A stretch of DNA of 64,000 nt from an uncultured Candidatus Saccharibacteria bacterium. Lineage in GTDB: Bacteria; Patescibacteriota; UBA1384; XYA2-FULL-43-10. Position numbers and translations under genes: made by a program. The stretch lies in the NCBI GenBank assembly GCA_964426805.1, contig CAYRRY010000001.1, forward strand, positions 2,504 to 66,503, written 5' to 3'. A model generated the notes under the pieces. It was not told the DNA's origin and did not search any database. It saw only the letters and a list, made by a program, of their open reading frames with translations. This document shows, piece by piece, positions 24,424 through 50,018 of this stretch; position 1 is the first letter of the stretch; every line of letters starts with the position of its first letter.

Positions 24424-24534
24424 CTAAATATCAAATAATGTATGGTTAATAACTGATAATTAAGAAACGATGTATTATTGACAATTTCAGCTAAAATTAT
24501 AGCAAATTTTACGTTCTTTGGAAAGTGCTAATAT

Positions 24535-32877: not shown

Positions 32878-35580
32878 TTAGTTAATTTTATTTTTAATTT
32901 TTACACCAAGAATATTCTTCCAAAATCTAAGCTTCTCTATAATGCAGTAATAAACAGGGAAAGCTGTAACAGCCAAGATAGTAGATGCTAATAGTCCGAA
33001 TATTATTGTATAGACCAGAGATTCCCAGAAAGGATCGGCAAGTGACAAAGGCACAAGAGCTACAATTGTGGTGATAGTGGTGATAACAATCGGTCGAAAA
33101 CGCACAGCCATCGCCGTAGAGATCGCCTGTCCTGGATTTTTGCCACTCAGGCGCTCTCTATTAGCAAAGTCGATAAGCATGATTGTATTGTTGACCACGA
33201 TACCGGATAGAGCGATAACCCCAATGAGAGCAAAGAAGCTTAGTTCGTTGTTGGAGTAGAAGAGTGCTGGAAATACTCCGGCGAAAGAAAATGGTATGGC
33301 CAGTAAAACCAAGAACGGCAGAGAGAAAGAATTGTACTGGAGTACAAGCAGTACATACATAACTGCGAGTGCTATGTAGAAGAAAAAGAGTGCAGAATCA
33401 AAAGAGCCCATAAGCTCGCTCTCAAGCCCTTGGTTAAAAAGTATTCCCTGGTCAGCGTCTAGTCCAAGCTCTTCTAGTTTCGACTCATTAAATTCCTCTT
33501 CTACAGTTTTTTGCAATTCGATGATAATTCCTGAATTTTGAGTGTCAGATATCTTTGTTTTGACCTGGATAAATCTCTCGCCATCTTTTCTAGCAATAGT
33601 AGTCAAATAATCAACAGCAGGATCAAACGATTTCTCGCCATCCAAAACTTCCTTGTCAGTCAAAAACTCTGTAAGTTCATCGGCGGCTCTCTCTAGCAAG
33701 GCCTGATCATCTGAATAAACTTGAACAAAGAACTTGTACTCTGTTGTGTCTGGAGGACCAGCGCTGTAGGCAGAAGCTTTCATTGAAGCGTTATCAATTT
33801 CAGAATAATCATCGTTTATAGCTTCCACTAGTTCTGGGGCTGTTTTTTCACGGTCTTGAAAATCAGTCAGACGTACAAACAGGTAGCCCTGCGTGCTGTT
33901 CGAGGCAAAATAATCGACTTCTAGAATTTCGTCATCGGCATTTTCAACCAATATATTTTCAGCATCAATTGCAATCTGCTCTGCTTGGTCAACCGTTGTT
34001 CCATCTGGAAAAGACATCTGCACAATCATACTGTTAGCATCTTTTGGCGGAGCGAAAGTTGAGAATTTCAATTTTGTTGAATAGTATATCCCACCACTAA
34101 TTAAACCGAGAGAAACTATCAGAATTATTGTTGCCCATAAGGGTTTGCATACGTACCAGCCGATAAATTGTCCGACTTTCTTACTGGCCATTGAAATGAG
34201 ATCGCCGAGTTCGTTAAATATAACATTTCCAATTTTTGATAAAAAAGTCTTTCTCTCGACTTTTTTATAGTTTGGGATTAAGAAGCTGGATAAAAATGCA
34301 ATCGTAGTAAGAGCAATTATAAGCGAGGCCACAAGCGCAATTATTACTGTTACCGGTATGTACTGGATAAAATCACCTAAAACGCCGGATATCAGTGCCA
34401 TAGGGATAAAGACGAGAAGAGTAGTCAGCGTTCCAGAGATATCAGCAATTCCTATGTCCTTTATGGCAGCAGTTACCGCCTCAGCTCCTTTTTTGCCGAG
34501 TCGTTTCTGCCTATCAACAGATTCCACGACGACTATAGCATCGTCCACGAATAAACCCAAAACAAGGATGAGTCCGAAGAGGACCATAGTATTTAACTCG
34601 TATCCGATAAGATATAAGCCTAGGAATGTTGCAAAGAAAACAGTTGGTATAAAGATGGCACCTATAATTGAAGCTCTCCAGTTGATCATGATAAACAAAA
34701 CTACTACAACAGCTATCAGAGAAGTAAGTGCTGTTGATTCCAAATCCTGAATCTGATCTTTAGTATACTGTGCCATGTCACCGCCGTAAGCGATAGTGTA
34801 TCCGTTTAGCTCTCCCTCATTTTCTAATCGTTTAATTTCTTCGCGAACCTGGTCAGATGTTTCTACAATCCCACTATCTAGCTTTTTAGTTACGCCAACA
34901 TTTATCGCTTCTCTAAAAACAAGCTCGCCATCTTCTTTTAGACCAACTCTAGAATAACCCTCTTTTTGAATAACAGTTTTTCCGGTAAATGGATTGGCTC
35001 GCTCAATTAAAACATCGGTTGCGTTTGAGTTTTTTACAGCGTTAAGTTTAGAAAATTTGTTAGATAAGAATAGGGCCTTATCTTGTAGCTCGAAAGTTGT
35101 TTTGCCTTCTCCTGAAAGAGAAAACAAAAGGTCACTCTCGCCGTCAACTGCTCCAGCATTTATCGTCATATAATTTAGCTCTGCGCCCTCTGGTAGAAAA
35201 CTTGTATCTTTTAGCTCATCTTTTAGAGCATCAACTCCCTGTTCTGAGCTATATCCGGAAACAAATTCAATTTGAATGATTGAAAAATTTGGATAAGACT
35301 GAGTCAAGGTACTTTTTACTTCTGGCACTTCCAGAACTTTCTTCTCAAGTGGTCCAGCTACCCTCAAGTCAACCTCTGCCGAGTCATTTGCTAAATATGA
35401 AGTTTGGAGTATGGCAATTGGGATCTCGATTGGCGGCAAGCCCTCTCTTTTTAGGAACTGAGTATATGTCACGTATCCTATAGCTATAATTGCCAAGAGT
35501 AGCAAAATTGTGATTCTGTAAGTTTTTACAAAGTAGGTGCTAAATGAAGCAATCGCATTTTGTAGGAACGAGCTTTTCAT
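32878..35580 (-). CDS. RND-superfamily transporter permease (AcrB/MMPL-like, 12 TM with two large periplasmic loops)
   Basis: 900 aa. Two repeated 6-TM bundles each preceded by a large soluble loop. Confidence 0.75.
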   Translation of the reverse strand: MKSSFLQNAIASFSTYFVKTYRITILLLLAIIAIGYVTYTQFLKREGLPPIEIPIAILQTSYLANDSAEVDLRVAGPLEKKVLEVPEVKSTLTQSYPNFSIIQIEFVSGYSSEQGVDALKDELKDTSFLPEGAELNYMTINAGAVDGESDLLFSLSGEGKTTFELQDKALFLSNKFSKLNAVKNSNATDVLIERANPFTGKTVIQKEGYSRVGLKEDGELVFREAINVGVTKKLDSGIVETSDQVREEIKRLENEGELNGYTIAYGGDMAQYTKDQIQDLESTALTSLIAVVVVLFIMINWRASIIGAIFIPTVFFATFLGLYLIGYELNTMVLFGLILVLGLFVDDAIVVVESVDRQKRLGKKGAEAVTAAIKDIGIADISGTLTTLLVFIPMALISGVLGDFIQYIPVTVIIALVASLIIALTTIAFLSSFLIPNYKKVERKTFLSKIGNVIFNELGDLISMASKKVGQFIGWYVCKPLWATIILIVSLGLISGGIYYSTKLKFSTFAPPKDANSMIVQMSFPDGTTVDQAEQIAIDAENILVENADDEILEVDYFASNSTQGYLFVRLTDFQDREKTAPELVEAINDDYSEIDNASMKASAYSAGPPDTTEYKFFVQVYSDDQALLERAADELTEFLTDKEVLDGEKSFDPAVDYLTTIARKDGERFIQVKTKISDTQNSGIIIELQKTVEEEFNESKLEELGLDADQGILFNQGLESELMGSFDSALFFFYIALAVMYVLLVLQYNSFSLPFLVLLAIPFSFAGVFPALFYSNNELSFFALIGVIALSGIVVNNTIMLIDFANRERLSGKNPGQAISTAMAVRFRPIVITTITTIVALVPLSLADPFWESLVYTIIFGLLASTILAVTAFPVYYCIIEKLRFWKNILGVKIKNKIN

Positions 35581-35801: not shown

Positions 35802-35878
35802 TTGGTGGACCGTAAGGGACTTGAACCCTTGACCTCCTCCATGCCATGGAGGCGCTCTAGCCAACTGAGCTAACGGCC
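35802..35878 (-). tRNA. tRNA-Ala (anticodon GGC) with G3:U70 identity pair, CCA encoded
   Basis: Hand-folded. Acceptor GGGCCGT/ACGGTCC. D-arm GCTC-AGTTGGCTA-GAGC. Anticodon stem CCTCC/GGAGG with loop ATGGCAT. T-arm AAGGG-TTCAAGT-CCCTT. Confidence 0.85.
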
Positions 35879-35944
35879 CACTATAGAAATAATATTACAT
35901 TCATTTAGCTATAAAATCAATCTCATTCGTGATAAAATAGTATT

Positions 35945-36718
35945 ATGGAAACAAAAACAAAGTTATTAAAAATTGCTGGGCTGTCAAAAGCAGAACTTCA
36001 TATTCATAGCAATTATTCTGACGGAAAAGGATCGATTGAAGAAATCTTGGAATATGTTGAACATAACACCGATTTAAAAGTAATTGCCATCACTGATCAT
36101 GATACTATTGAGGGCGCAAAAATAGCAGACAAGTTAGTCAAAAACGGCGACTATAGGTTTGATGTAATAATTGGCGAAGAAGTTACATCGAGAGATGGTC
36201 ACATTGCCGGTCTTTTTCTAAAGGAAAAAGTAAACCCAGGTATGAGTGCTAGAAGAACAGTGAATGCCATTCATCGCCAAGGCGGTTTAGCAATTGCGGT
36301 GCATCCTTTTTTCAAAACACATTATTATCATCCTGATTATCCGATAATGCGTGGAGTAGGCGCAAAAGTGCTGCTGAGACTACGGGGACTATTTGATGCA
36401 ATCGAGGTAATTAATGCTACCCCAACAATGGGTTACGAAAACTATATGGCAGACTTATATAATAAAACTATTGTCCATACCGCAGAAACAGGTGCCTCGG
36501 ACGCTCACATTATAGGTGCTATCGGTCATGGCTACACTCTTTTCGAAGGAAATTGTAAAAAAGATCTTAAAAACGCTATAAAAAAAGCTCAGACAAAAGC
36601 GATGTCAAAAAAATGGAGCATTCTTGAAATGTTGAGGTATCTTTACTTCTTTATACCAAGTGGATTGAGAATACTGACATATTCCATTTTGCACCCAAGA
36701 CAATTGAAAAATAGTTAA
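35945..36718 (+). CDS. PHP-domain metal-dependent phosphoesterase
   Basis: ELHIHSNYSDG and ITDHD His/Asp motifs. Confidence 0.75.
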   Translation: METKTKLLKIAGLSKAELHIHSNYSDGKGSIEEILEYVEHNTDLKVIAITDHDTIEGAKIADKLVKNGDYRFDVIIGEEVTSRDGHIAGLFLKEKVNPGMSARRTVNAIHRQGGLAIAVHPFFKTHYYHPDYPIMRGVGAKVLLRLRGLFDAIEVINATPTMGYENYMADLYNKTIVHTAETGASDAHIIGAIGHGYTLFEGNCKKDLKNAIKKAQTKAMSKKWSILEMLRYLYFFIPSGLRILTYSILHPRQLKNS

Positions 36719-36740: not shown

Positions 36741-39641
36741 ATGAAATACGACTTCAAATCAATCGAGAAAAAATGGCAAGAACGTTGGGAGAAGTCGGAT
36801 GAGTTTATGGCTTCCGACGACTCAGACAAACCAAAACACTATAATTTGGTAGAATTTCCCTATCCATCTGGTGCTGGTCTCCATGTGGGGCACGTTATGG
36901 GTTATGGCGCCTCAGACGCTTACTGTCGCATGAAACGGATGCAGGGTTACAATGTGCTTTTCCCAATTGGTTGGGACTCTTTTGGTTTGCCCACCGAAAA
37001 CTACGCCATAAAGAACAAGATTCACCCACGAGTAGCTACCGACCAAAATATAAAAACATTTATTAAACAGTTTAAATCGCTAGGCATCTCTTTCGATTGG
37101 TCGAGAGAAATCGATACAACTGATCCAAATTATTATAAGTGGACTCAGTGGATATTTTTGAAGTTCTACAAACACGCAATAGTCGATGGAAAATTAGTTG
37201 AAGTAGCTGACGACGATACTATAACTCCCAGATTAGCTTATCAAGATGAGATAGCAATCAATTGGTGTCCGTCATGCAAAATAGGTTTAGCAAATGAAGA
37301 AGTAGTAAACGGCAAATGTGAACGATGCGGAGAAGAAACATCTAAAAAAATGCAGAAACAGTGGATGCTTCGCATAACCGACTATGCTGATAGGCTTATA
37401 GATGACCTTGATACCGTTGATTATCTAGAAAGGATAAGAACCCAACAAATAAATTGGATCGGGCGATCCGAAGGTACAGATGTGGACTTTAAGCTAAAAG
37501 GTTTAGATCAAATCATAAAGGTTTTTACTACGAGAGTAGATACCCTTTTCGGTTGTACATATATGGTACTTTCGCCAGAACATACACTTGTTAAAAAGCT
37601 GGACTCTTCAATAAAGAATGCTAATGAAGTTAACAAATATATCGAAAATGCTAAAAATAAATCTGATTTAGAACGAACAGAGCTTCAAAAAGAAAAAACT
37701 GGCGTACGGCTCGAGGGGATAACAGCCATCAACCCTATCAACAATGAAGAGGTTGAGGTTTGGATCGCAGACTACGTTCTAGCTAACTACGGTACAGGGG
37801 CTGTTATGGCTGTGCCGGCCCATGATGACCGTGATTATGAATTCGCCAAGAAATATGGGATTGAAATAAAAAACGTGATTATCCCAAAAGTAGTCGACAA
37901 ACACGATCCGCCAATGGAAGGTGTAGAAACAATTTATAGATTTTCGATACAAGCTATCATTATAAATCAGAAAGATGGGAAAGTCTTAACTCTCAAATGG
38001 AAAAAACTCCCGTGGAGAACATTTATCACTGGTGGTATAGACGAAGGCGAAGATGTTGTAGAGGGGGCTAAGCGAGAAATATTAGAAGAGACTGGGTACA
38101 AAAACATTAAATTCATTCGAAATCTTGGTGAAATCGTAGAGTCGCATTTTTATGCTAATCATAAAGAAGAAAACCGCAAGGCTCATTTTCAGGGTATACT
38201 TTTTGAACTAGAAAACGATGAACGAGATGAGGTGTCTAGCAAAGAAAAAGAAATCCATGAGGCCGAATGGATGACCTGGGAAGATTTGAACAATGACAAA
38301 CAGATTAAATGCGCTGAGTATGACATCTGGTTGGACAGAATTAATAATGACGAACACGCCTTTATTGAATACGGTGTTTTAATAAATAGCGGTAAGTTTG
38401 ATGGACTGGAGTCAAAAGAAGCAATTCAAAAAATCACACAAAAGATTAAAGACAATAATAGTGGAGATTTTGCAAAGAACTTCAAGCTTCGAGATTGGAT
38501 TTTTTCGCGACAGCACTACTGGGGTGAACCGATACCTATCATACATTGTAATACTTGTGGCACTTTACCTATGGACGAAAAGAACCTGCCTCTAGAATTG
38601 CCAGTAGTTGAGAACTATCAGCCCACAGACACTGGCGAGTCACCCTTGGCAAAAATCAAAGAATGGGTCAACGTTAAATGTCCTAAATGTGGAGCTGAAG
38701 CCAAAAGAGAAACCGACACAATGCCAAATTGGGCTGGCTCTTCTTGGTATTTCTTAAGATATTGCGACCCTAAGAATAATGATGAGTTTATATCTAAAAC
38801 AATGCTTGCTAGTTGGATGCCCGTAGATCTTTATAATGGTGGCATGGAACACACAACACTTCATCTTCTATATTCGAGGTTTTGGCACAAGTTTTTATAT
38901 GACTTAGGAGCCGTAAATACAGCTGAGCCTTACAAAAAGAGAATAGCTCATGGCATTATCCTTGGTACTGACAACCAGAAAATGAGCAAATCAAAGGGAA
39001 ACGTAATAAGCCCCGATGATATAGTTGAGCAATACGGAGCGGACACTCTTCGAGCCTATATTATGTTTATTGGACCATATGATCAAGAATCCGCTTGGAA
39101 TATGGACGGAGTTGCTGGTGTTAACAGGTTTTTGAATAAAGTAGTAAATAATTTTGAGAAAGTTGACGGTAATCACAAAGATGACGACAATACTATAAAG
39201 TTGATAAACAAGACAGTAAAAGGTGTCGGCGAGGACATTGAGAGGTATTATCTAAACACCTACATTGCCAAGTTAATGGAGTTCAACAACCATCTCTTCA
39301 CACTCGACAAAATATCTAGTCTAACATTAACTACATTTGCAAAGCTTCTCTCTCCTGCTTGCCCCCACCTAGCATCAGAAATGTTAGAGAGATTGAAGTC
39401 AGAGGACAATCTATGGCCAGAGTACGACAAATTAAAAATAATAGATAGCGAAATTACACTTGTTGTTCAGATAAATGGCAAAGTTCGTGACAAGATGACA
39501 GTACCCGCCAACATAAGCAAAGATGAGATGCTCAAAATTTCCAAAGAGAGCAAAATCGTTCAAAAATGGACAAAGAACAAGGAGATAATCAAAGAGATAG
39601 TCGTCCTAGGAAAGCTTGTTAACATTGTTATCAAGGGTTAG
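36741..39641 (+). CDS. leuS: leucyl-tRNA synthetase with an inserted NUDIX hydrolase domain (~37885-38367)
   Basis: HVGH, zinc knuckle WCPSCKIGLANEEVVNGKCERCG, CP1 editing domain (TTRVDTLFG...GTGAVMAVPAHDDRDYEFAKKYG), KMSKS. Between the editing domain and the EYGVLINSGKFDGL region lies GGIDEGEDVVEGAKREILEETGY, a perfect Nudix box. Confidence 0.9.
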   Translation: MKYDFKSIEKKWQERWEKSDEFMASDDSDKPKHYNLVEFPYPSGAGLHVGHVMGYGASDAYCRMKRMQGYNVLFPIGWDSFGLPTENYAIKNKIHPRVATDQNIKTFIKQFKSLGISFDWSREIDTTDPNYYKWTQWIFLKFYKHAIVDGKLVEVADDDTITPRLAYQDEIAINWCPSCKIGLANEEVVNGKCERCGEETSKKMQKQWMLRITDYADRLIDDLDTVDYLERIRTQQINWIGRSEGTDVDFKLKGLDQIIKVFTTRVDTLFGCTYMVLSPEHTLVKKLDSSIKNANEVNKYIENAKNKSDLERTELQKEKTGVRLEGITAINPINNEEVEVWIADYVLANYGTGAVMAVPAHDDRDYEFAKKYGIEIKNVIIPKVVDKHDPPMEGVETIYRFSIQAIIINQKDGKVLTLKWKKLPWRTFITGGIDEGEDVVEGAKREILEETGYKNIKFIRNLGEIVESHFYANHKEENRKAHFQGILFELENDERDEVSSKEKEIHEAEWMTWEDLNNDKQIKCAEYDIWLDRINNDEHAFIEYGVLINSGKFDGLESKEAIQKITQKIKDNNSGDFAKNFKLRDWIFSRQHYWGEPIPIIHCNTCGTLPMDEKNLPLELPVVENYQPTDTGESPLAKIKEWVNVKCPKCGAEAKRETDTMPNWAGSSWYFLRYCDPKNNDEFISKTMLASWMPVDLYNGGMEHTTLHLLYSRFWHKFLYDLGAVNTAEPYKKRIAHGIILGTDNQKMSKSKGNVISPDDIVEQYGADTLRAYIMFIGPYDQESAWNMDGVAGVNRFLNKVVNNFEKVDGNHKDDDNTIKLINKTVKGVGEDIERYYLNTYIAKLMEFNNHLFTLDKISSLTLTTFAKLLSPACPHLASEMLERLKSEDNLWPEYDKLKIIDSEITLVVQINGKVRDKMTVPANISKDEMLKISKESKIVQKWTKNKEIIKEIVVLGKLVNIVIKG

Positions 39642-39709: not shown

Positions 39710-39913
39710 ATGGCAGAACCAAAAAAGAGAACAAACAAATCCAAGCGTGGTATGAGAAGAATGTGTATTAAAGCCAAGGCTCCATCTATCGCCTACTGCG
39801 ACAATTGTCACGAGGCAGTTATTAGCCACCAAGTATGCAAAAACTGTGGTTTTTATAATGGCAAAAAAGTTATTGATATAGAAAGCAAAAAAGAAGTAAT
39901 CGAAGAGAAGTAA
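39710..39913 (+). CDS. rpmF: 50S ribosomal protein L32 (zinc-ribbon form)
   Basis: [17 protein letters not shown] start with CDNC...CKNC. Confidence 0.85.
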
Positions 39914-40349: not shown

Positions 40350-41050
40350 AAACAATTGAAGAATTTGAAAAAAGTATAGGAGTAGAGTTTAAGGACAGAG
40401 AGTTGATAGAAACCGTCTTTACACACCGATCTTATCTAAATGAACACCGAAACTTGAGTCATGATCATAACGAACGGTTAGAGTTTCTCGGCGATGCCGT
40501 CTTGGAGTTATGCGTTACTGAGTATTTATATGAAAAATACGACAAACCCGAAGGAATTATGACAAACTGGAGAAGTGCTCTCGTAAAGGGAGAATCGCTT
40601 TCGACAGAGGCAAAAAGAATAGGGATGAATGAGTTGATTAAAACTTCTCGCGGTGAATCAAAAAATACTGGAAAGGCCAGGGATCTGATTATGGCCAATG
40701 CTTTTGAAGCCCTTTTAGGGGCAATATATCTAGATAATGATTACAAAAAGGCCTACACCTTCGTTAAAAAGAATGTAGCTTATAAGTTAGATGATATAGT
40801 AAAAAAAGGCTTGGATTACGACGCAAAAAGCAAGTTCCAAGAACTTGCTCAAGATACCCTTGGTATTACACCATCATACGATGAATTAACATCTGTCGGC
40901 CCAGATCATAACAAAGAATTCACAATGGCTGCATTTTTAAACGGTAAAGAGGTTGGAAAAGGCAAAGGAAGATCAAAACAGAAAGCTCAAACTGACGCAG
41001 CCACCGAATCACTTAAAAATTGGGAAAAGATAAAAAAAGAATTCAAATAG
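40346..41050 (+). CDS. rnc: ribonuclease III
   Basis: [13 protein letters not shown] signature and C-terminal dsRBD. Confidence 0.92.
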
Positions 41051-41090
41051 ATTGAATAATAAAAAGGCAATTACATATTAAGTGTTTTTT

Positions 41091-42047
41091 TTAGTGCCAA
41101 TCAATATTACGAAATCCCCAATCAAGCAAGCGAACCGATTCATCCGCAGATGCGGTTACAGTATCTAGATAGGTATGAAGAACAACTCCGACCAATGTGT
41201 TACCCTCTCTGCTAGCAGCAGAGACAAGACAGTGACCTGCTTCCGGCATATATCCTGTTTTTACTCCGATAGCTCCAATGTAGTTGTATTCTCCGACCAA
41301 CCTATTCGAGTTCTTAAGTTCATGATAAATTGATTTTTCTGTATTCTTTGCCACATACTTTTCAGTTCCTACAATTTTTCTAAATATTTTACTTTTCAGA
41401 GCCTCGCTGGTCAAAGTAAAAAGATCATAAGCCGTGGAGTAACCAGTAACATCCAGTCCGGCGGGATCTTCGTATTTTGTATCAGTCATACCTAGTTCTA
41501 CGGCCTTTTCGTTCATTAGTGAAATAAATTTCGATATACCCACATCGTCAGCATTATTTGCATGTTCTGCTAACGCATAAGCTGAATCATTGCCAGATTT
41601 TATAAGAAGACAGTGCAAAAGCTCAGACACGCTCATCTTCTCACCGACTCTTAAAAACGCGTCGGCACCAACTTGATAAGCAGCATCAGCGGAGACTGTT
41701 ACAACCTCATCCAGAGCATATTCGTCGAGCACGACCAAAGCTGTCATTATCTTTGTAGTAGAGGCTATGGGAACTTCTGTCTTGTCGCCCTTCTTCAACA
41801 TCACCTTACCGCTCTCCAAGTCAGCTAACAGGTAGTTGTTTGCTCTTATGTTCGCACTTGGCGCACTTTTCTTCACCTCAGGAGTTCTAATCAGTTCAGG
41901 TAGATATGCGTCTATACCAGAAGCTACAACGCCCCTGTCATCACGCTGTTCAAGATTATAAACTGCGTCGTCAAACCTGTCCTCAGCAAAAGAAAAACCA
42001 AGTACGGAGCTAATAATCGATACCAAAAATAGTGATTTTTCAATCAT
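41091..42047 (-). CDS. D-alanyl-D-alanine carboxypeptidase (S11 low-MW PBP)
   Basis: SxxK (ASTTK), SxN (SGND) and KTG (KTGY) motifs. Confidence 0.8.
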   Translation of the reverse strand: MIEKSLFLVSIISSVLGFSFAEDRFDDAVYNLEQRDDRGVVASGIDAYLPELIRTPEVKKSAPSANIRANNYLLADLESGKVMLKKGDKTEVPIASTTKIMTALVVLDEYALDEVVTVSADAAYQVGADAFLRVGEKMSVSELLHCLLIKSGNDSAYALAEHANNADDVGISKFISLMNEKAVELGMTDTKYEDPAGLDVTGYSTAYDLFTLTSEALKSKIFRKIVGTEKYVAKNTEKSIYHELKNSNRLVGEYNYIGAIGVKTGYMPEAGHCLVSAASREGNTLVGVVLHTYLDTVTASADESVRLLDWGFRNIDWH

Positions 42048-42056
42048 CTTGTTTAT

Positions 42057-43490
42057 TTAGTCGTTTGTTTCAGTGTCCTTTATGGAAAGCGCCTTACTTT
42101 TTGCTTCTTTTGATAGTTCTATATGAACTGTTTTTAGCTGATTTTCCGATATGCTTGAGGGCGCTCCCATCATAGGATCTCTTGCGTCGCCAGTTTTTGG
42201 AAATGCCATAGCCTCTCTTATGGCTTTCTCTCCAGAAAATATGGCTGCGATTCTGTCTATTCCAGCAGCAATTCCACCGTGAGGCGGTGCTCCGTATTCA
42301 AAAGCTTCTAACATGTGGCCGAATCTTCTCTCTTTCTCCTCTGCTGATACGCCCAGTATATCAAAAACTTTTTCCTGGATATCTCTTTCGTGAATTCTTA
42401 TTGATCCTCCAAAAATCTCAAACCCATTTAGCGCCAGGTCATAGGCATATGCTTTTGCGTCTTCGGGCTTTGAGTCCAGCAATAATCTATCCTCCTTGGC
42501 TGGAGAGGTAAACGGGTGATGAACAGAGACAAGCTTGCCCTCGCTCTTGGATTTGGTAAACATCGGCGTATCGACAATCCACGCAAAGGCGAATTCTTCA
42601 GTATTATTTTTATCAGCTCGAAGATCCGGCTTATCGGTTTTATATTTTTCAATAGATTCCTTATATGTGATGCGTGGAAATGGGGTTTCGGTGATGCTAG
42701 CCTCAGGTTTAAGTTTTTTCACCATCTCTATCATCATCGGTTCAATCAAGTTTAGAATGTCTTCCTGTTCTACAAAGCTCATCTCCAAGTCCATTTGAGT
42801 GAATTCTGGTTGTCTGTCACCTCTTTGGTCTTCATCGCGAAAACATCGTGCAATCTGAAAATATCTCTCAATGCCGCCAACCATCAAAAGTTGTTTGAAT
42901 TGTTGTGGGCTCTGAGGTAACACATAAAATTGACCTGGGAAAAGTCTTGCCGGCACCACAAACTCTCGAGCACCTTCTGGGGTCGACTTTGTTAGATACG
43001 GCGTCTCAATCTCTCTAAAATCGTTTTTATATAAATACTCTCGAATATACTTAATTATTTCATGACGAAGAGTAATATTTTTGTTCATTCTATCTGTTCG
43101 TAAATCCAGATATCGATATTTTAGTCGAAGTTCTTCATCTACTTTTGAAGTATCTTTATCTATTTCAAAAGGTGGCGTCTTCGCCTTATTCAATATCTCA
43201 ATCTCAGAAGCTTCGAGTTCTATAGTTCCGGTAGCATTATCTTTGTTTACCATCTTTTCTGGTCTCTCCTTGACCTTACCGTTTATTCGAAGTACCCATT
43301 CTGTCCGTATATCAGAGACAACCTCATATGCTCTAGAGCCCGGCACAACTACAACTTGAACAATCCCAGTCATATCTCTAAGATCAAGAAAAACGATCTT
43401 TCCGTGATCACGCCTCGCATGAACCCAGCCATTGATTGACACATCTTTCCCTGCTTCTTTTGATAAATCTTTTATCCATTCTCTTTTCAT
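42057..43490 (-). CDS. aspS: aspartyl-tRNA synthetase, bacterial type, short form lacking the GAD insertion domain
   Basis: N-terminal OB fold. FRDED, QSPQQFKQLLM and GGIERYFQIARCFR class II motifs. 477 aa. Confidence 0.88.
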   Translation of the reverse strand: MKREWIKDLSKEAGKDVSINGWVHARRDHGKIVFLDLRDMTGIVQVVVVPGSRAYEVVSDIRTEWVLRINGKVKERPEKMVNKDNATGTIELEASEIEILNKAKTPPFEIDKDTSKVDEELRLKYRYLDLRTDRMNKNITLRHEIIKYIREYLYKNDFREIETPYLTKSTPEGAREFVVPARLFPGQFYVLPQSPQQFKQLLMVGGIERYFQIARCFRDEDQRGDRQPEFTQMDLEMSFVEQEDILNLIEPMMIEMVKKLKPEASITETPFPRITYKESIEKYKTDKPDLRADKNNTEEFAFAWIVDTPMFTKSKSEGKLVSVHHPFTSPAKEDRLLLDSKPEDAKAYAYDLALNGFEIFGGSIRIHERDIQEKVFDILGVSAEEKERRFGHMLEAFEYGAPPHGGIAAGIDRIAAIFSGEKAIREAMAFPKTGDARDPMMGAPSSISENQLKTVHIELSKEAKSKALSIKDTETND

Positions 43491-43502
43491 GTTGTCTCCA
43501 TA

Positions 43503-45761
43503 TTAGGTACGTAGCTTCGCTTTATATTTATTCTCTAGTTTGTTTACTATGCTAGAAAATATTTTGTCACCTTCTTCGTCCAATAGTGTCTTGTCGTCTG
43601 CTTGAAAGAAAAGGTGAAAGGCGATATTTTTCATCCCTTTGCCAAACTTATCCGAAGCAAATTCATCAAAGCAGTCCACTCTCTTTATTTGATCAGATAT
43701 TGAATATATAGTCTGCTCTATCTCTTCTGGCTTGATATTCTTTTTAACTATTACTGCAATATCCCTTGATACGGATGGATATTTTGATATTTTTCTATAT
43801 ATTTTACCTTTCTTCTCAACCTTGTAGGAAAGGAGTTTTTTGTCAAATCGTCTTTTCGCTATAGCTTTTGATATGTCGGTTTCAATTACTGTTACTGACT
43901 TTTTCTTGATTTTATAGGGTTTCAACTCTTCACTGAAAAGTTCGGTGATTTTAAATTCTCTCGAGCCAAAGCTGTATTTATCAGACAGCAAACTTATCAC
44001 TTCCTCACTAGAGATTTCACTTTTATTTGTAAGTGCCATCGCCAAAGACGTAGACTCCTTACTTTTTGAAAATACCTGACCAATTTCAAATATCTCAATC
44101 GGATCAAAGCTTGCGTTTTTCGAAATAGTTTTTAGTAGTCCTGAAGACAGATTGTTTCGTAGGTATTTGTTTTCAGGTTGCAGTGGGTTTTCTACTTCCA
44201 AGAGAGAAGATGATTTTATTTTGAAAACTTCAGTATCTCCTTTTGATAAAAACGAATAGTTGTAAACCTCAACCAAGCCAGCATCGACTAGCGTATCTTT
44301 GATATTCTCAAACAGATTGTAATTGGACAACGCCTTGTCAGAAGATTTCTTGATAGGTTTTGGTGTGATGTTATCATACCCATGTATTCTCCCCACTTCT
44401 TCAGACAAATCTTGCCAAACCTCGATGTCGTGACGAAAACTTGGAGGCATGCACCTGTTTTCACTAATACTGAACCCCAAACGAGAAAGAATCGACTTAA
44501 TTTGTTCGTCGTTTATTTCCAAATCAAGATATTTACGAATATTGTCAGGTTCAATCTCTAGCCAATTCTCCGAGTGCTCCCCATGGGGACCCACAACGCC
44601 AGATAATATAACACCACCCGCAACTTCGCTTATTAGTTTTGCTGCTTTATTTATTGCATGCTCAATACCTTTTGAGTCTACACCGCGTTCAAACCTATAG
44701 CTTGCTTCAGTATTTAGATTTAGGTTTTTGATGCTTTTTCGAATAACTTTTCGATCAAACTCAGCGCCTTCGATAACAATATTTGTAGTATCGTCTGAAA
44801 CCTGGCTGTTCTCTCCCCCTATAATTCCAGCAATCGCAATGGGTTTTTTATCGTCAGCTATTACTAGCTCTTCGCGAGTTAGGCTTCTCTTCTCTCCATC
44901 TAGTGAAATAATGGATTCGTTGCCCGAAGCTCTTCGAACCACAATTCTATTTTTATTGATCTTGTCCATGTCAAAAGCATGCAATGGGTGTCCTAAATCA
45001 TAGAGTATATAGTTGGTAATATCTACAACGTTATTTATGCTTTTCAGCCCCATTTTAGAAAGTGCGTTTTTAAGCCATTTTGGGGACGGAGCTATAGACA
45101 CACCTTCGACAACTCGAGCAAAATATCTCGGACAATCTTCATCTCGTTTTACATCCACCTTTATCACGTCTGAAGCTTTTTTAGATGATTTTTCAAGTGA
45201 AATGGGCTCTCGCATCACTTTCTCTGTAGAGATGGCTGATATCTCTCGGGCCATGCCTAAATGAGAAAGACAGTCGCCTCTGTTTGGAGTAATGTCTAGG
45301 TCAAATATAGTATCTTTTTCATAAACTTTATTCAAACCATCGCCTTCTTTCTCTTCTGGACTTAATATTAGAATTCCTGCGTGGTCGTTCCCAAGCCCAA
45401 GCTCTTTTTCAGAACAAAGCATACCTTCGGAGTCAACACCTCTAATCTTTGTCTTCTTAATCTCAAAATCACCTACTTTTGCACCAACCTTGGCTAAGGC
45501 CACACGATCGCCGATTTTGTAATTGTCCGCACCGCAGACAATCTTGTAGCTCTTACCACCAGTGGCTGCATCGACTACTTTTAGCTTGTCCGCGTTTTTA
45601 TGTTTTTCAATCTTCATAACCGTTGCAACGAAAATCTTGTCAAAAGAGACTTTTTTAATTTCTTCAACTTCACTTCCTGTTGAATTCAAAATATCTGCGA
45701 GCTCTGAGTCGCTGTAGCCAAACTTTGTATGTTTTTTTAACCAGTTTTTCGAGATTAACAT
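43503..45761 (-). CDS. pheT: phenylalanyl-tRNA synthetase beta subunit
   Basis: N-terminal tRNA-binding (EMAP-like) domain, B3/B4 and B5 domains, C-terminal anticodon-binding region. 752 aa. Confidence 0.9.
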   Translation of the reverse strand: MLISKNWLKKHTKFGYSDSELADILNSTGSEVEEIKKVSFDKIFVATVMKIEKHKNADKLKVVDAATGGKSYKIVCGADNYKIGDRVALAKVGAKVGDFEIKKTKIRGVDSEGMLCSEKELGLGNDHAGILILSPEEKEGDGLNKVYEKDTIFDLDITPNRGDCLSHLGMAREISAISTEKVMREPISLEKSSKKASDVIKVDVKRDEDCPRYFARVVEGVSIAPSPKWLKNALSKMGLKSINNVVDITNYILYDLGHPLHAFDMDKINKNRIVVRRASGNESIISLDGEKRSLTREELVIADDKKPIAIAGIIGGENSQVSDDTTNIVIEGAEFDRKVIRKSIKNLNLNTEASYRFERGVDSKGIEHAINKAAKLISEVAGGVILSGVVGPHGEHSENWLEIEPDNIRKYLDLEINDEQIKSILSRLGFSISENRCMPPSFRHDIEVWQDLSEEVGRIHGYDNITPKPIKKSSDKALSNYNLFENIKDTLVDAGLVEVYNYSFLSKGDTEVFKIKSSSLLEVENPLQPENKYLRNNLSSGLLKTISKNASFDPIEIFEIGQVFSKSKESTSLAMALTNKSEISSEEVISLLSDKYSFGSREFKITELFSEELKPYKIKKKSVTVIETDISKAIAKRRFDKKLLSYKVEKKGKIYRKISKYPSVSRDIAVIVKKNIKPEEIEQTIYSISDQIKRVDCFDEFASDKFGKGMKNIAFHLFFQADDKTLLDEEGDKIFSSIVNKLENKYKAKLRT

Positions 45762-46445
45762 TTAGAACTGTTTAATGAATCGTAAATCACCACTATAAAA
45801 TTGTCTTATATCGTCTATGCCATATTTGAGCATTACCATCCTGTCTATACCTATTCCGAAAGCAAAGCCACTATATTTTTCAGGATCTATCCCCATGTTT
45901 TTCAATACCTTAGGGTGAACCATGCCAGAGCCCAAAACCTCTAACCACTTACCTTTAAACCAGATATCTATATCAAAACCAGGCTCTACAAATGAGTAAT
46001 GATGAGGCCGCCTGCGAATCTTTATCTCGTCTCCGAACATCTTTTTTATGAAGTTCTCAAGCATCCAAAAAAGATTGCCAATATTTACATCCCTATCAAT
46101 ATATAAACACTCTAGTTGATAGAAAGTAGTTTCATGCCTGGCGTCGGTGGATTCATTCCTAAAACATCTCCCCGGAATTACCACTCTAATCGGCGGCTTC
46201 TTTTCTTTCCCCGCTCGTACCTGGCCATTCGAAGTATGCGTTCTTAAAACTCGTTTATCGGTCAACCAAAAAGTATCCTGCACGTCTCTAGAGGGATGGT
46301 CTCCCGGCACATTCACAGCATCAAAATTATACCATTCAGTGTCAACTTCTGGGCTAGAATAAACTTCGAAACCGAGCTCTTCAAATAATTTTAGCGCTTC
46401 TCTGAAATACAATGTTATTGGATGTAAATTCCCCTTTTTCTTCAT
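45762..46445 (-). CDS. pheS: phenylalanyl-tRNA synthetase alpha subunit, catalytic core only (start at Met 46445; the track ORF extension to 46517 is not supported)
   Basis: Class II motifs (HPSRDVQDTFW; FRNE; GFAFGIGIDRM). The ATG overlaps the stop of the upstream membrane-protein gene as ATGA. Confidence 0.85.
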   Translation of the reverse strand: MKKKGNLHPITLYFREALKLFEELGFEVYSSPEVDTEWYNFDAVNVPGDHPSRDVQDTFWLTDKRVLRTHTSNGQVRAGKEKKPPIRVVIPGRCFRNESTDARHETTFYQLECLYIDRDVNIGNLFWMLENFIKKMFGDEIKIRRRPHHYSFVEPGFDIDIWFKGKWLEVLGSGMVHPKVLKNMGIDPEKYSGFAFGIGIDRMVMLKYGIDDIRQFYSGDLRFIKQF

Positions 46446-46819
46446 GTTGACGAACCTTTTGTTTGAAAAAATAACTCTATTAATACTATCACAATTAGGA
46501 GTGGAATTCCAACCCAAAAATCCAATACTCTTAGCCCTTGAAGAAGCACAGTGACCACTATTCCCATTGATACTATAACACCTTGGCGAAGTGATGGTCT
46601 AAAAAGGGAATAAATCATCGAATTTTTAAATATGTAGATCTTTGAATAAAAAATTATCAGCGATAAAATGCCTACCAAGGTTACAAAGAGCGATAGATAG
46701 AAAAGCGAAAAGATAAATTGACTAGATTCATAGGGATTGTAGTTGTTGACAACAATTATGAAAGTCGCAATTGCGACTACCGTAATCGAAAAGATAAAAA
46801 ATAAATTTTTCTTAAGCAT
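46442..46819 (-). CDS. small integral membrane protein (4 predicted TM)
   Basis: 125 aa, strongly hydrophobic. ATGA-coupled to pheS. Confidence 0.55.
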   Translation of the reverse strand: MLKKNLFFIFSITVVAIATFIIVVNNYNPYESSQFIFSLFYLSLFVTLVGILSLIIFYSKIYIFKNSMIYSLFRPSLRQGVIVSMGIVVTVLLQGLRVLDFWVGIPLLIVIVLIELFFQTKGSST

Positions 46820-46849
46820 ATATATATTTTATCAAATTTATGCTTAGAA

Positions 46850-46881
46850 TGAAAAAATCCCCAATTTCCGGGGATTTTTTT
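46850..46881 (-). terminator. intrinsic terminator after rplM-rpsI (A-tract, stem ATCCCC/GGGGAT, T-tract; bidirectional)
   Basis: aaaaaatccccaatttccggggattttttt read directly from sequence. Confidence 0.65.
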
Positions 46882-47259
46882 CTATCGCTTAGACCATTGT
46901 GGAGATTTCCTAGCCTTTTTGTGTCCAGGCTTCTTTCTCTCTTTTTCTCTAGGATCACGTTTCAGGAGCCCTGCCTTTTTGAGGGGTGCGCGGAATTCTT
47001 GTTCGTACTCAACTAACGCTCGCGATATTCCATGTCTTATAGCTTCTAGTTGGCCCTGCTTTCCGCCACCAGAGACTTTTACGCTAATTCCGAATGACGA
47101 TAGCTTCCCGACGACTTCAAATGGTTTGTTTAGCTCATCAGAAGTAAACTCTTTTTCATTAACAATAAAACCTTTATCGCCCTCAGTAATTCTGACGCGC
47201 GCGATTGATGTTTTTCGTCTGCCTACTCCGTATTGATATCTTTTAGTTTTTTCTGCCAT
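46882..47259 (-). CDS. rpsI: 30S ribosomal protein S9 (start at Met 47259)
   Basis: GGGKQGQLEAIRHGISRAL and C-terminal KKPGHKKARKSPQWSKR. Confidence 0.9.
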   Translation of the reverse strand: MAEKTKRYQYGVGRRKTSIARVRITEGDKGFIVNEKEFTSDELNKPFEVVGKLSSFGISVKVSGGGKQGQLEAIRHGISRALVEYEQEFRAPLKKAGLLKRDPREKERKKPGHKKARKSPQWSKR

Positions 47260-47260
47260 A

Positions 47261-47671
47261 TTACTCGTTTTCGAATTTAATATTTTGATGTAAATGCTTG
47301 TCAGATTTGTATACATGCAATCTAGCCAGCCTGCTCTTTGTTTGCTTGTTCTTTGGAAGCATGCCTGCTACAGCTTTTTTGATAATCATGTCGGACTTTT
47401 TCTCTTTAGCTTCCTTGAATTCTAAAGTTTTTGTGCTTCCAATATATCCCGAGTGAGTGTGGTACTGTTTTGAATTTTCTTTATTGCCGGTAAGATATAG
47501 TTTGTCAGAGTTTATTACTACAACGTGATCTCCACCGTCTATGTTTTTAGCAAAACTAGGCTTGTGTTTTCCAATAATAAGAGAAGCAACTTCGGTACAG
47601 ACTCTGCCAACAGGAGCAGTTGATGCGTCGAATATATGCCAATTTCTCTGAATTTGTTTATTTTTTTCCAT
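47261..47671 (-). CDS. rplM: 50S ribosomal protein L13
   Basis: Sequence matches the L13 family over its full 136-aa length. Confidence 0.88.
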   Translation of the reverse strand: MEKNKQIQRNWHIFDASTAPVGRVCTEVASLIIGKHKPSFAKNIDGGDHVVVINSDKLYLTGNKENSKQYHTHSGYIGSTKTLEFKEAKEKKSDMIIKKAVAGMLPKNKQTKSRLARLHVYKSDKHLHQNIKFENE

Positions 47672-48044
47672 CTGTTTCCTTTTTCTCTACTGAGGGCTTT
47701 TTTTCGATCTTGTCTGTCATCTCAATCAACATCATCTCGGCGTTATCTCCAAGTCTGCTGGAAATCGACAGTGTCCGAGTAAATCCTGAGTTTCTGTTCT
47801 TAAATCTAGGCACCAATACTTCAAATGTCTTTTTATAAGCATTTTTATCTAGCATATATCCTGCAACGAAACGTTTCGCTGGAAGATCGTTTTTCTTTGC
47901 TCGAGTCATGATTTTATCAAACTCACTTTTTAGCACCTTGGCTTTTGCCTTAGTGGTTTGAATTGACTCATACAAAACAAGAGAGGTAACAAGATTTCGC
48001 ACCATTAGCTCCCTATTATCTTTTTTTCTGCCAAGCTTACGCAT
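47658..48044 (-). CDS. rplQ: 50S ribosomal protein L17
   Basis: MRKLGRKKDNR...SGFTRT pattern. Confidence 0.88.
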   Translation of the reverse strand: MRKLGRKKDNRELMVRNLVTSLVLYESIQTTKAKAKVLKSEFDKIMTRAKKNDLPAKRFVAGYMLDKNAYKKTFEVLVPRFKNRNSGFTRTLSISSRLGDNAEMMLIEMTDKIEKKPSVEKKETDGKK

Positions 48045-48978
48045 TTATCATCTCTTTTATTTCATCTACACCCTTATTTCCCAAGCCCTTTATTTCAGAT
48101 AGTTTAAGATCGGAAAGTCTCTTAAGTCCTGCGATAGACTTGATTCCAGCGTTGACCAAAGCGTTCGTGGTTCTAGCAGAAAATCCAGCTTCCTCAATTT
48201 TAGTCTTTGGATCCATATCTGCAATTTCACTGGTCTCCGGGGCAATTTCAGGAACGATTTCCTTCTCGACACTCTCCTCTGTTAGTTTATCCTCAACCTC
48301 TACGTTGAAAGCGATCTGTCTGTAGTGGTCTATTAAAATATTTGAAGCTTCTACCATGGCCTGTTTGGCCTCTGTTGTGCTATTGGTTTTCACGTCCAGA
48401 ATTAATCTGTCGTAGTTTGTCATCTGACCAACACGAGTGTTCTCTATCTCCATCTTAACTCTTTGAATTGGGGAGAAGGCCGCATCTGTCATAATTCGTC
48501 CTATCTCTTTTGTTGACTCTTCGCCAGATTCAATTGTGATAAAACCTCTGTTATTTTCAATAACCACTTCTAGCTCGAAGTTTGCCTTGTTGTCTAAATC
48601 GCAGATATATACATCTTCATTTACGATTTCTACCTGAGAATTGGCTTTAAAATCTTTGGAAGTAACCGTTCCTGGCCCCTTCTTGTTTAAATGAAGGACC
48701 ACAGGCTCATCACTGTGTGAGATGTAATTTATATCCTTTAGGTTCAGCATAAGCTCGATCATATCTTCCTTAACGTGTGGAACAGATGTAAATTCATGGG
48801 TTATGCCCTCAACTTTGAAAGAAGTCATGGCTGCACCTTCTAGTGAAGATAGCAAAACTCTTCGAAGAGCGTTTCCAATTGTAGAACCATATCCAGGATA
48901 AAGAGGCTCAACCGTAAAGATTGAATTATCTTCAGATACTTTTTTCTCAACAATTTTTGGTAATGTAATTTTTTCCAT
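48037..48978 (-). CDS. rpoA: DNA-directed RNA polymerase alpha subunit
   Basis: N-terminal dimerisation domain (GYGSTIGNALRRVLLSS) and C-terminal alpha-CTD. Confidence 0.92.
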   Translation of the reverse strand: MEKITLPKIVEKKVSEDNSIFTVEPLYPGYGSTIGNALRRVLLSSLEGAAMTSFKVEGITHEFTSVPHVKEDMIELMLNLKDINYISHSDEPVVLHLNKKGPGTVTSKDFKANSQVEIVNEDVYICDLDNKANFELEVVIENNRGFITIESGEESTKEIGRIMTDAAFSPIQRVKMEIENTRVGQMTNYDRLILDVKTNSTTEAKQAMVEASNILIDHYRQIAFNVEVEDKLTEESVEKEIVPEIAPETSEIADMDPKTKIEEAGFSARTTNALVNAGIKSIAGLKRLSDLKLSEIKGLGNKGVDEIKEMINA

Positions 48979-49007
48979 TTTTGTCCTTTTTCCCGCCGAA
49001 AGGCGAT

Positions 49008-49598
49008 TTATCTAGAATAATATTCCGCGACTAAACTTTCATTAATGCTCAAGTCTACTTCATCGCGATTTGGTATATGTTTAATAGTTATCTCTTTTTT
49101 CTTGGCATCTACCTCTATCCAGTTAGGTATATCACTTTTTACGTTTTTCTCTTCAGGTTTGTAGTTAATCTTTATTTTGTCACCTTCTGAGAGAAGAATA
49201 GATGGCACAGTAACTCTACCGCCGTTTAGGGAAACTAAACCGTGAGAAACTTTTTGTCTAGACTGTGGCCTAGAGCTAGCAAATCCAGCTCTGTAAACTA
49301 CATTATCTATTCTCGATTCAAGTATTTTAATTAGGTTCTCAGTAGTGTTTCCTTCAGATTTATCAGCTAATGCGTAGTATTTGGAAAGTGTTGATTCGGA
49401 TAAACCGTAAACTGATTTACTTTTCTGCTTTTCTCGAAGTTGTTTTCCGAACTCGGATAGTTTTGTTCTCTGAGTTGGACCGTGGTCACCAGGAACATAT
49501 GAACGTCTGGAGAACGCACACTTCGTAGTAAAACATCGGTCACCTTTAAGCATCAATTTGGCGCCTTCTCTTCTGCATCTTTTACAAGCTTTTTTCAT
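49008..49598 (-). CDS. rpsD: 30S ribosomal protein S4 (zinc-ribbon N-terminus; start at Met 49598)
   Basis: CKRCRREGAKLMLKGDRC and LSEFGKQLREKQK. Confidence 0.9.
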   Translation of the reverse strand: MKKACKRCRREGAKLMLKGDRCFTTKCAFSRRSYVPGDHGPTQRTKLSEFGKQLREKQKSKSVYGLSESTLSKYYALADKSEGNTTENLIKILESRIDNVVYRAGFASSRPQSRQKVSHGLVSLNGGRVTVPSILLSEGDKIKINYKPEEKNVKSDIPNWIEVDAKKKEITIKHIPNRDEVDLSINESLVAEYYSR

Positions 49599-49599
49599 A

Positions 49600-49995: not shown

Positions 49996-50018
49996 ATTAA
50001 TAAGTAATATTAAATAAT

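Follow-up and report, generated by a model that had tools for sequence, protein, structure and literature searches.

The gene leuS lies on the plus strand of a 64,000-nucleotide stretch of contig CAYRRY010000001.1 (called the window here) from an uncultured Candidatus Saccharibacteria bacterium. It encodes a bacterial-type leucyl-tRNA synthetase (LeuRS) whose editing domain, CP1, is interrupted by a NUDIX hydrolase domain; the features of the locus are collected in Table 1. The protein scored 959 bits against TIGR00396 (leuS_bact; cutoff, 548.4 bits), with the insert breaking the match into two stretches, and contained the class I catalytic, editing (PF13603; 219.9 bits), and anticodon-binding Pfam domains. 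It was aligned end to end with the LeuRS structures of Thermus thermophilus (Tt; E, 3.5e-196) and Escherichia coli (E, 5e-170), and an AlphaFold2 (AF2) model of the full-length protein had a predicted local distance difference test (pLDDT) value of 91 and a predicted template modeling (pTM) score of 0.81. Four CxxC motifs were present, and the HIGH, KMSKS, and editing motifs were each invariant over 89 aligned relatives. An earlier note, made by reading this DNA by eye, had claimed that the gene holds all canonical LeuRS elements, and these results bear the claim out. From its sequence, the gene is the organism's housekeeping leuS, with the synthetic site and the CP1 post-transfer editing site intact; leucylation of tRNA-Leu and hydrolytic editing are predicted from the intact motifs and from the synteny (leuS-rpmF-nusB-rnc) with insert-less relatives. 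The leucine-specific domain has no counterpart in the window LeuRS: the junction of residues 746 and 747 (positions 38976-38981) corresponds to Tt 583/637, and Tt 584-636 is missing. This domain, which precedes the KMSKS loop, is variable among bacteria and is not strictly defining. A separate peculiarity is an 18-residue insertion relative to T. thermophilus LeuRS, IVDGKLVEVADDDTITPR, in the ZN-1 region (positions 37173-37226, approximately residues 145 to 162), which is kept in the clade consensus.

Table 1. Features of the leuS locus, in window positions and in residues of the window LeuRS (invariance refers to the alignment of 89 sequences)
Feature	Positions	Strand	Residues	Remarks
leuS coding sequence	36741..39641	+	966 aa plus stop	Bacterial-type LeuRS bearing NUDIX module
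HVGH (HIGH-type) class I signature	36882..36893	+	48-51	H48, G50, H51 invariant
CP1 editing domain part 1	37452..37880	+	238-380	PF13603 matches residues 238-386 = model 2-146 of 185
TTRVDT Thr-rich motif	37527-37544	+	263-268	T263, T264, R265, T268 invariant
GTGAVM editing motif		+	351	In CP1 part 1
HDDRD editing motif	37821-37835	+	361-365	H361, D362, R364, D365 invariant
Inserted NUDIX module	37884..38366	+	382-542	Includes N-terminal linker and C-terminal helices
Pfam NUDIX core	37953..38294	+	405-518	PF00293
Nudix box GGIDEGEDVVEGAKREILEETGY	38031..38099	+	431-453	Metal-binding/catalytic motif; strict-pattern match
CP1 editing domain part 2	38367..38483	+	543 to ~581	EYGVLINSGKFDGL...KLRDW; aligns Tt 374-417; second PF13603 stretch
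KMSKS loop	38979..38993	+	747-751	K747, S749, K750 invariant
Anticodon-binding and C-terminal domain	39141..39638	+	801-966	PF08264 at 820-928; aligns Tt 637-878
rpmF (L32)	39710-39913	+	67 aa	Between leuS and nusB
PHP-domain phosphoesterase gene	35945..36718	+		Ends 22 nt upstream of leuS; context only
tRNA-Ala(GGC)	35803-35879	-		Upstream of PHP gene
tRNA-Leu(CAA)	24338-24424	-		12 kb away

The limits of the insert were set by alignment with T. thermophilus LeuRS, in which residue 380 of the window protein matched Tt 362 and residue 538 matched Tt 374, so that 157 residues stand for 11. The PF13603 editing model is interrupted by the module at model position 146 of 185. Given this break, and since, by published accounts, CP1 of T. 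thermophilus LeuRS spans residues 224 to 417, the segment EYGVLINSGKFDGL downstream of the insert is still part of CP1. The NUDIX module, at a surface-loop site 17 residues past the editing Asp, is thus nested in CP1, a domain that in its turn is inserted into the Rossmann fold; the earlier note had placed the module after the editing domain, which was wrong, and had given coordinates (37885-38367) one base out of frame with the module. Its estimate of about 160 extra residues was right as to a large insert and not as to the exact size, as the net extra length is ∼147 to 157 residues. That ordinary LeuRS have only a small equivalent loop was confirmed by the 11 residues of T. thermophilus and by the sister LeuRS P0005 (79% identical, from a syntenic locus), which has a short loop at the module site and is 147 residues shorter.

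PF00293 matched the insert at 63.9 bits in the full protein (E, 1.9e-17; gathering cutoff, 21.1) and at 68.4 bits with the insert alone. The Nudix box fits the pattern Gx5Ex7REUxEExGU strictly, as had been read from the sequence, and keeps every metal-binding and catalytic residue, all Glu included. The predicted fold is an alpha/beta/alpha NUDIX fold, and the AF2 model and fold comparison support a compact, apparently intact domain that would fold autonomously.

The same architecture recurs in relatives. Among the 120 LeuRS clusters nearest to the window protein, a NUDIX-sized insert occupies the same site in 93, and a short loop alone is found in 25. The strict Nudix box is found in 88 of the 93 and is near-invariant, GG[IV][ED]xxExxxxAxxRE[IV]xEE[TS]GY, across sequences of 54 to 82% overall identity. 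The search of related genomes for the same insertion was also positive: species-representative genomes held at least 47 loci, in all of which the module is in frame inside leuS, a lower bound because the scan used a deliberately narrow module alignment. The locus labels are nearly all Patescibacteria (Berkelbacteria, Staskawicz-, Zambryski-, and Taylorbacteria, Paceibacteria/Parcubacteria, "Saccharibacteria" metagenome-assembled genomes, and the generic "Patescibacteria group"); the remainder are a few labeled "bacterium" only and one 2-kb contig labeled Bdellovibrionales. The exact window protein is present in NCBI and ENA, encoded on a contig of 66.8 kb, and LeuRS::NUDIX proteins such as OQB06121.1 are already in public databases, where they are named "Leucine--tRNA ligase" or "class I tRNA ligase family protein"; generic names of the latter kind hide the architecture in current annotation.

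This recurrence settles whether the gene could be an artefact, whether through assembly chimerism, a frameshifted gene fusion, or a spliced-out intein-like element. The chimeric join about which the earlier note had worried is ruled out by the same in-frame architecture in more than 100 independent assemblies (NCBI, ENA, JGI, and Logan) and by GC content that is flat across both insert junctions; flanking direct or inverted repeats at the insert were short, chance-level matches only. An intein or other spliced element was rejected because splice signatures were lacking: the module starts with PKVVDK (a Pro) and ends with NNDEHAFI followed by EYG, with no HN(C/S/T). The chance that any such artefact explains the gene is therefore negligible, and we regard the architecture and its authenticity as practically certain.

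Conservation within the module was examined in the 93 module-bearing LeuRS. Residues R400, W420, W425, G431, G432, E437, Y453, K475, R479, L490, and W510 are conserved in 92 to 100% and R445, E446, E449, E450, and G452 in 98 to 100%; E446, E450, and G452 remain at least 90% conserved over all 89 aligned LeuRS, eight of which have no insert. R400, W420, W425, K475, R479, L490, and W510 may contribute to base stacking and to the binding of polyphosphate. Mean identity to the window protein was 0.50 in the NUDIX core, 0.51 in CP1 part 2, and 0.40 in the C-terminal domain. Against the closest orthologue, L056 (82% amino acid identity), the nonsynonymous divergence (dN) of the module was 0.064, the lowest of all regions (N-terminal catalytic part, 0.073; CP1 part 1, 0.148; C terminus, 0.244); dN alone was compared because synonymous divergence (dS) was saturated even here. 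These substitution patterns indicate strong purifying selection on the module, which looks like a constrained enzyme and not a decaying passenger, and its activity can be presumed. We consider it very likely that the module is catalytically active.

Vertical co-inheritance of module and host, the expected result, was tried and rejected. Pairwise distances of the module and of the LeuRS core correlated at r = -0.06 to 0.21, against 0.72 to 0.90 for the two halves of the core. The correlation was run in two sets, one ranked by full-length score and the other (set B) chosen on the module alone, which addresses selection bias as a cause of the decoupling. Discrete module types were shuffled within one tight host cluster. 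In a neighbor-joining tree of the LeuRS core without inserts, insert-less LeuRS were scattered among module-bearing ones, with P0005 as sister to the window protein (the trees used identity or BLOSUM distances, were rooted at the midpoint, and drew on the top of a ranked list). The locus of P0005, L048, is syntenic with the window, the loop GKDSNLKVK stands in place of the module, and no other NUDIX of the module family was found in the 22-kb L048 locus or in the 64-kb window. The module has been cleanly lost many times, in sister lineages.

A closely related genome pair, L051 and L052, which encode P0032 and P0046, points to replacement. The two proteins are 90 to 100% identical on both sides of the module and only 21 to 43% identical in most 30-column blocks of the module; the Nudix-box block is 65% identical, and the divergent tract reaches ∼25 residues into CP1 part 2. 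In the genomes, nine neighboring genes are 81 to 98% identical, and leuS is mostly ∼80 to 100% identical at the DNA level, with a drop to 51 to 63% in nucleotides 1201 to 1800 only. These alignments indicate that the module alone was exchanged, through recombination with a divergent allele of it. As flanking CP1 sequence was carried along, the simplest donor is another leuS::NUDIX allele; differential loss from a multicopy ancestor would formally also yield the difference. The conserved pocket residues are the same in all module types, which therefore look functionally equivalent. Because module and host distances are uncorrelated, mosaic pairs occur, and loss in L048 was clean, the module can be regarded as autonomous: it is evolutionarily detachable, though strongly constrained.

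To place the module in its family, an exhaustive phmmer search with it was run over 1.84 billion cluster representatives, giving 554 matches, 209 of them at E <= 1e-10; the census below comprises 148 proteins, those of the best 150 matches that were new. LeuRS segments were found in 106 of the 148 representatives, and 12 of these 106 carry two or three module copies. At least three sites in LeuRS are used: between the N-terminal catalytic part and the CP1 core (approximately reference residue 253; sometimes in tandem), the site of the window protein (also sometimes in tandem), and inside the second catalytic half (approximately reference residue 607). The strict box is retained in most extra copies. 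With 93 of 120 LeuRS clusters, 106 of 148 family representatives, and at least 47 genomes, the window protein is not a singular oddity.

The module family also extends to a second aminoacyl-tRNA synthetase (aaRS). P0240 is a class II prolyl-tRNA synthetase (ProRS) with the module between the anticodon-binding and C-terminal domains. A search aimed at this architecture yielded five ProRS::NUDIX clusters on separate contigs, at 61 to 74% identity, and two more representatives are fragments of the same architecture. Since their nearest insert-less relatives are labeled Nanoarchaeota or Woesearchaeota, these hosts are probably DPANN archaea. ProRS and LeuRS modules are 41 to 48% identical, which equals the closeness between LeuRS module types, and the module of P0272 (a ProRS) is 47% identical to a LeuRS module and 39% identical to another ProRS module. 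Standalone family members adjoin these genes: P0133 ends one base upstream of a leuS::NUDIX gene, and on two contigs the second gene upstream of proS::NUDIX is P0155 or a homologue. No non-aaRS multidomain host was identified among the 148 representatives; the other multidomain proteins were two tandem-NUDIX proteins and P0262, whose N-terminal part is unassigned. Judged by domain content, the subfamily appears among the multidomain proteins of this census only in aaRS.

Some further features of the ProRS::NUDIX contigs (L049, L050, and L053) were recorded. On two of them, the order is a standalone NUDIX, a protein of ∼225 amino acids, and proS::NUDIX; the ∼225-residue protein has a weak AAA_18 match on one contig only. 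A MazG gene is close by in one contig and a PRPP (phosphoribosyl pyrophosphate)-synthetase-like gene in the other.

Other domains are inserted in the LeuRS of relatives. A Ser_hydrolase domain (PF06821, alpha/beta-hydrolase) of ∼190 residues is present besides NUDIX after reference residue 253 in P0028 and P0051 and after reference residue 607 in P0037, that is, at two different sites in different lineages; it is an esterase inside an aaRS, an enzyme that handles aminoacyl esters. P0111 (residues 834 to 1017) and P0119 (residues 984 to 1167) contain a complete Ham1/ITPase domain (PF01725; 181 to 197 bits) between the catalytic core and the anticodon-binding domain, with NUDIX also present, giving two nucleotide pyrophosphatases per synthetase. 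Further inserts occur in P0008, P0026, and P0041 (181 residues after reference residue 683), in P0024 and P0088 (128 to 168 residues after reference residue 253), and in P0119 (another 131 residues after reference residue 607). The inserts of P0008 and P0024 had no Pfam match at E <= 0.001; the other inserts of this kind were not searched separately.

The surroundings of the window leuS are those of a translation gene. The closest loci keep the order leuS-rpmF-nusB-rnc-dacC, and a dense translation neighborhood at approximately 41000 to 50400 (nusB, rnc, pheT, pheS, rpsI, rplM, rplQ, rpoA, and a class II aaRS of the tRNA-synt_2 family, AspRS/AsnRS type) is conserved in relatives, L048 and L051 among them. 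The PHP-domain gene just upstream, possibly cotranscribed with leuS, has an orthologue (PF02811/PF13263) at the same position in L048 and L056, the two closest relatives, and is not kept in distant loci. Rfam models detected two tRNAs only over the window, with no T-box or regulatory RNA upstream of leuS, and promoter and terminator scans stayed at background level. Farther upstream, a 900-residue open reading frame on the minus strand (32878-35580) has many hydrophobic segments and by eye resembles an RND/AcrB-type transporter; the otherwise syntenic L048 has three small genes in its place, a strain-level indel.

Next, the module was compared with known NUDIX groups. The best Foldseek matches were E. 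coli RppH (RNA-bound, RNA-free, and in its Ap4A [diadenosine tetraphosphate]-bound form), an oomycete decapping NUDIX, and ApnA (diadenosine polyphosphate) hydrolases; the profile search also gave Dcp2-type matches. The best NCBIfam models were those of RppH, yet below their equivalog cutoffs: NF001938 gave 29.0 to 33.4 bits against 116, and NF001936 gave 28.0 to 32.5 bits against 118. The module is thus at most one that works like the RppH/NudH group of RNA pyrophosphohydrolases and Ap4A/Ap5A hydrolases and is not a member of it; it is nearest to RppH/Ap4A-hydrolase-type and uncharacterized MutT-like NUDIX enzymes, among which fold and profiles do not discriminate. As Dunn and colleagues reportedly described in 1999, a Tyr ∼16 to 18 residues after the Nudix box marks the ApnA-hydrolase subgroup. 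An aromatic residue stands at box +17 in 92 of 92 modules (Phe, 66; Tyr, 20; His, 6), and +18 is Phe or Tyr in 63. ADP-ribose pyrophosphatases are marked by a Pro ∼15 to 16 residues after the box, NADH pyrophosphatases by a downstream SQPWPFPxS, and coenzyme A (CoA) pyrophosphatases by an upstream LLTxR(SA)x3Rx3Gx3FPGG. In the modules, the five residues most often seen at box +15 (Ser/His/Asn/Ala/Val) and at +16 (His/Phe/Asn/Glu/Gln) do not include Pro, and the NADH and CoA motifs occur in 0 of the 93 module-bearing sequences. No PADLOC-DB defense model matched the module or the whole protein at E <= 0.01. One structural match in BFVD, A0A2H4UTN1 of Bodo saltans virus, is named "tRNA 2'-phosphotransferase/Ap4A hydrolase," another fusion of a tRNA enzyme with NUDIX.

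The best explanation overall, to which we assign a probability of about 0.45, is that LeuRS here carries an active, tethered NUDIX enzyme with a role coupled to aaRS chemistry, most plausibly clearance of ApnA/Np4N dinucleotides. The module would be an Mg2+-dependent pyrophosphohydrolase and a self-contained unit on a tether, without being built into the editing mechanism. Ap4A-type dinucleotides classically arise from aaRS and are classically broken down by NUDIX enzymes. In the proposed mechanism, the module would remove Ap4A, Ap3A, and Np4N, which aaRS make from the aminoacyl-adenylate and ATP or another nucleoside triphosphate, near their place of origin; such local removal would suit very small cells, which are presumed to be probably without other hydrolases for these compounds. 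RppH, Aquifex aq_158, and similar NUDIX enzymes hydrolyze dinucleoside polyphosphates (PMC10148737). The parts of this explanation are not equally firm. That the function of the module would be coupled specifically to aaRS is reasonably likely, because the subfamily is confined to LeuRS, ProRS, and adjoining standalone copies among the 148 representatives. An ApnA/Np4N-type substrate is a tentative assignment, held with less than even confidence: it is consistent with the RppH neighbors in NCBIfam and Foldseek, with the aromatic residue at +17, and with the lack of ADP-ribose, NADH, and CoA markers. Hydrolysis of Ap4A/NpnN in cis is our best guess as the most plausible single functional idea, and fold and sequence do not discriminate here. 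Two observations weigh against the explanation as a whole: repeated loss means that the module is dispensable for LeuRS, and the unrelated hydrolases (Ser_hydrolase and Ham1) in other LeuRS loops of relatives fit a permissive scaffold without mechanistic coupling. NUDIX chemistry cleaves diphosphate linkages, and an aminoacyl-adenylate is an acyl-phosphate. Lacking a diphosphate linkage of the NUDIX type, misactivated aminoacyl-adenylates, which the earlier note had suggested as substrates, are unlikely ones.

A broader possibility, which we hold only as speculative, is that the subfamily is a dedicated aaRS accessory cassette, exchanged horizontally among ultrasmall episymbionts of the Candidate Phyla Radiation (CPR) and DPANN, that would supply a second, physically coupled activity on nucleotides made by or targeting aaRS. 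Such a cassette would insert at several sites of LeuRS and in ProRS and would be duplicated, lost, and replaced by recombination, and its targets might be, e.g., Ap4A/Np4N, Np4-capped RNA, or a nucleotide toxin.

The main rival to the coupled, tethered enzyme is a hitch-hiker in a permissive loop: a house-cleaning NUDIX acting on nucleoside triphosphates, oxidized nucleotides, or nucleoside diphosphate derivatives (NDP-X), tolerated in the CP1 loop without any link to aminoacylation and kept because, in a tiny genome, a fusion partner that is essential and constitutively expressed ensures that it is expressed too. The Ser_hydrolase, Ham1/ITPase, and Pfam-less inserts in other LeuRS loops and the repeated module losses would be expected of such a passenger. 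A random process, however, should also reach other essential proteins, and the census gave no non-aaRS multidomain host; instead, the same subfamily occurs in two unrelated aaRS, LeuRS of class I and ProRS of class II, whose bearers probably belong to two domains of life, and its standalone copies adjoin those very aaRS genes. We therefore rate the hitch-hiker as unlikely, the foremost among the rivals.

Less probable still is an RppH-like RNA 5'-end pyrophosphohydrolase or decapping module placed by the tRNA acceptor end, where it would remove a 5'-triphosphate or diphosphate, or Np4- or NAD-type caps, from tRNA or other RNA. The Foldseek matches to RppH with and without RNA and to the oomycete decapping NUDIX, the RppH models as best in NCBIfam, and the Dcp2-type profile matches all suit this idea, as does the geometry of LeuRS: CP1 binds the tRNA 3' end, which is adjacent to the 5' end in the acceptor stem.

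A role in conflict, in which the module would detoxify a nucleotide-type aaRS inhibitor, a toxin-modified tRNA end, or a nucleotide signal from hosts, competitors, or phages and in which cassette replacement would reflect an arms race, is a long shot. Presence/absence polymorphism among sisters, copy-number variation, and allele replacement are patterns typical of conflict systems, and CPR bacteria and DPANN archaea are episymbionts with common habitats. Yet no PADLOC model matched, the flanking genes are ribosomal or translation genes with none defense-like, dN within a module type is very low, and the putative substrate-binding residues are the same in all module types, so that the cassettes look equivalent and not diversified. 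Weakest of the functional alternatives, and hardly credible, is a noncatalytic NUDIX fold serving as a nucleotide sensor or as a structural spacer that modulates editing or aminoacylation, given the strict box with all Glu in the window copy and in ∼90% of site-A copies and the free exchange of module types, which argues against a finely tuned allosteric interface.

The architecture appears to be new. The earlier note knew of no described aaRS with an internal NUDIX module, and full-text literature searches (LeuRS/aaRS, Nudix, Patescibacteria/CPR, DPANN, inserted domain, and Ap4A) agreed, finding no description of one. A review of aaRS diversification from 2022 is silent on a NUDIX-in-aaRS architecture, and a 2026 survey of domain insertions lists the LeuRS editing domain as insertion-exclusive and never as a host (PMC13114784). 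The LeuRS and NUDIX families are both well known; their combination, the nesting, the spread over several sites and in several copies, the second, probably archaeal aaRS host (ProRS), and the cassette-like replacement all appear to be undescribed. The distribution across sites, copies, and aaRS, together with replacement, makes the finding more interesting than the earlier note proposed.

Several consequences would follow. A natural, conserved aaRS-NUDIX fusion would be a "Rosetta-stone" link between the source and the sink of Ap4A. It would make testable, in one polypeptide, whether aaRS-made dinucleotides are signals or damage and whether they need local removal, with sister enzymes without the module as built-in controls. 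The LeuRS editing domain, reported as insertion-only, can itself host nested domains, and LeuRS in CPR bacteria is a scaffold that collects hydrolases (NUDIX, Ham1, and alpha/beta-hydrolase). A functional enzyme domain can act as a recombining cassette, probably common to CPR bacteria and DPANN archaea, which bears on innovation in minimal genomes. If the accessory-cassette possibility were true, it would mean an unrecognized layer of nucleotide quality control or signaling inside the translation apparatus of minimal-genome organisms.

With the bacterial LeuRS of known structure (T. thermophilus 1H3N/2BYT and E. coli 4AQ7/4ARC), the window protein shares the Rossmann core with HIGH and KMSKS, the Zn modules, CP1 with its T-rich and GTG motifs and conserved Asp, and the anticodon-binding and C-terminal domains. 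It differs from T. thermophilus LeuRS in having NUDIX for the CP1 loop Tt 363-373, in lacking the leucine-specific domain, and in its ZN-1 insertion; among the structure matches to the window LeuRS, no solved LeuRS structure contained a NUDIX insert. With RppH/NudH and Ap4A-hydrolase-type enzymes (E. coli RppH, 4S2W/7SP3; Aquifex aq_158, 3I7U; T. thermophilus Ndx1), the module has in common its fold, the full Nudix box, an aromatic residue ∼17 residues downstream of the box, and basic residues in the strand that follows. Identity to these enzymes is only 17 to 24%, TM-scores are 0.6 to 0.7, and scores fall far below the family cutoffs; unlike them, the module has its own conserved R400, W420, W425, K475, R479, and W510 and is embedded in an aaRS instead of free-standing. 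The Enterococcus faecalis MutT/nudix protein 2AZW, a structural genomics entry with no assigned substrate, is standalone and 16 to 17% identical, and it permits no transfer of function to the module.

Two comparisons concern the manner of insertion. Inteins and other insertions in essential genes, by analogy only, resemble the module in occupying conserved sites of essential translation proteins, in their sporadic distribution, in a phylogeny decoupled from that of the host, and in using multiple insertion sites; the module differs in having no splicing or homing-endonuclease motifs and in being a conserved enzyme under purifying selection, presumably kept in the mature protein. The other comparison is with aaRS that have an additional enzymatic domain, such as IleRS carrying a GNAT N-acetyltransferase (NCBIfam NF040702), and with the cis-editing domains of aaRS in general; these likewise place a second catalytic domain in an aaRS polypeptide. 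IleRS-GNAT is evidence that accessory enzymes can be taken up into aaRS scaffolds; the window LeuRS differs from it in the NUDIX-type pyrophosphohydrolase fold, in the nesting within the editing domain, in the variable sites and copy numbers of its module, and in cassette exchange.

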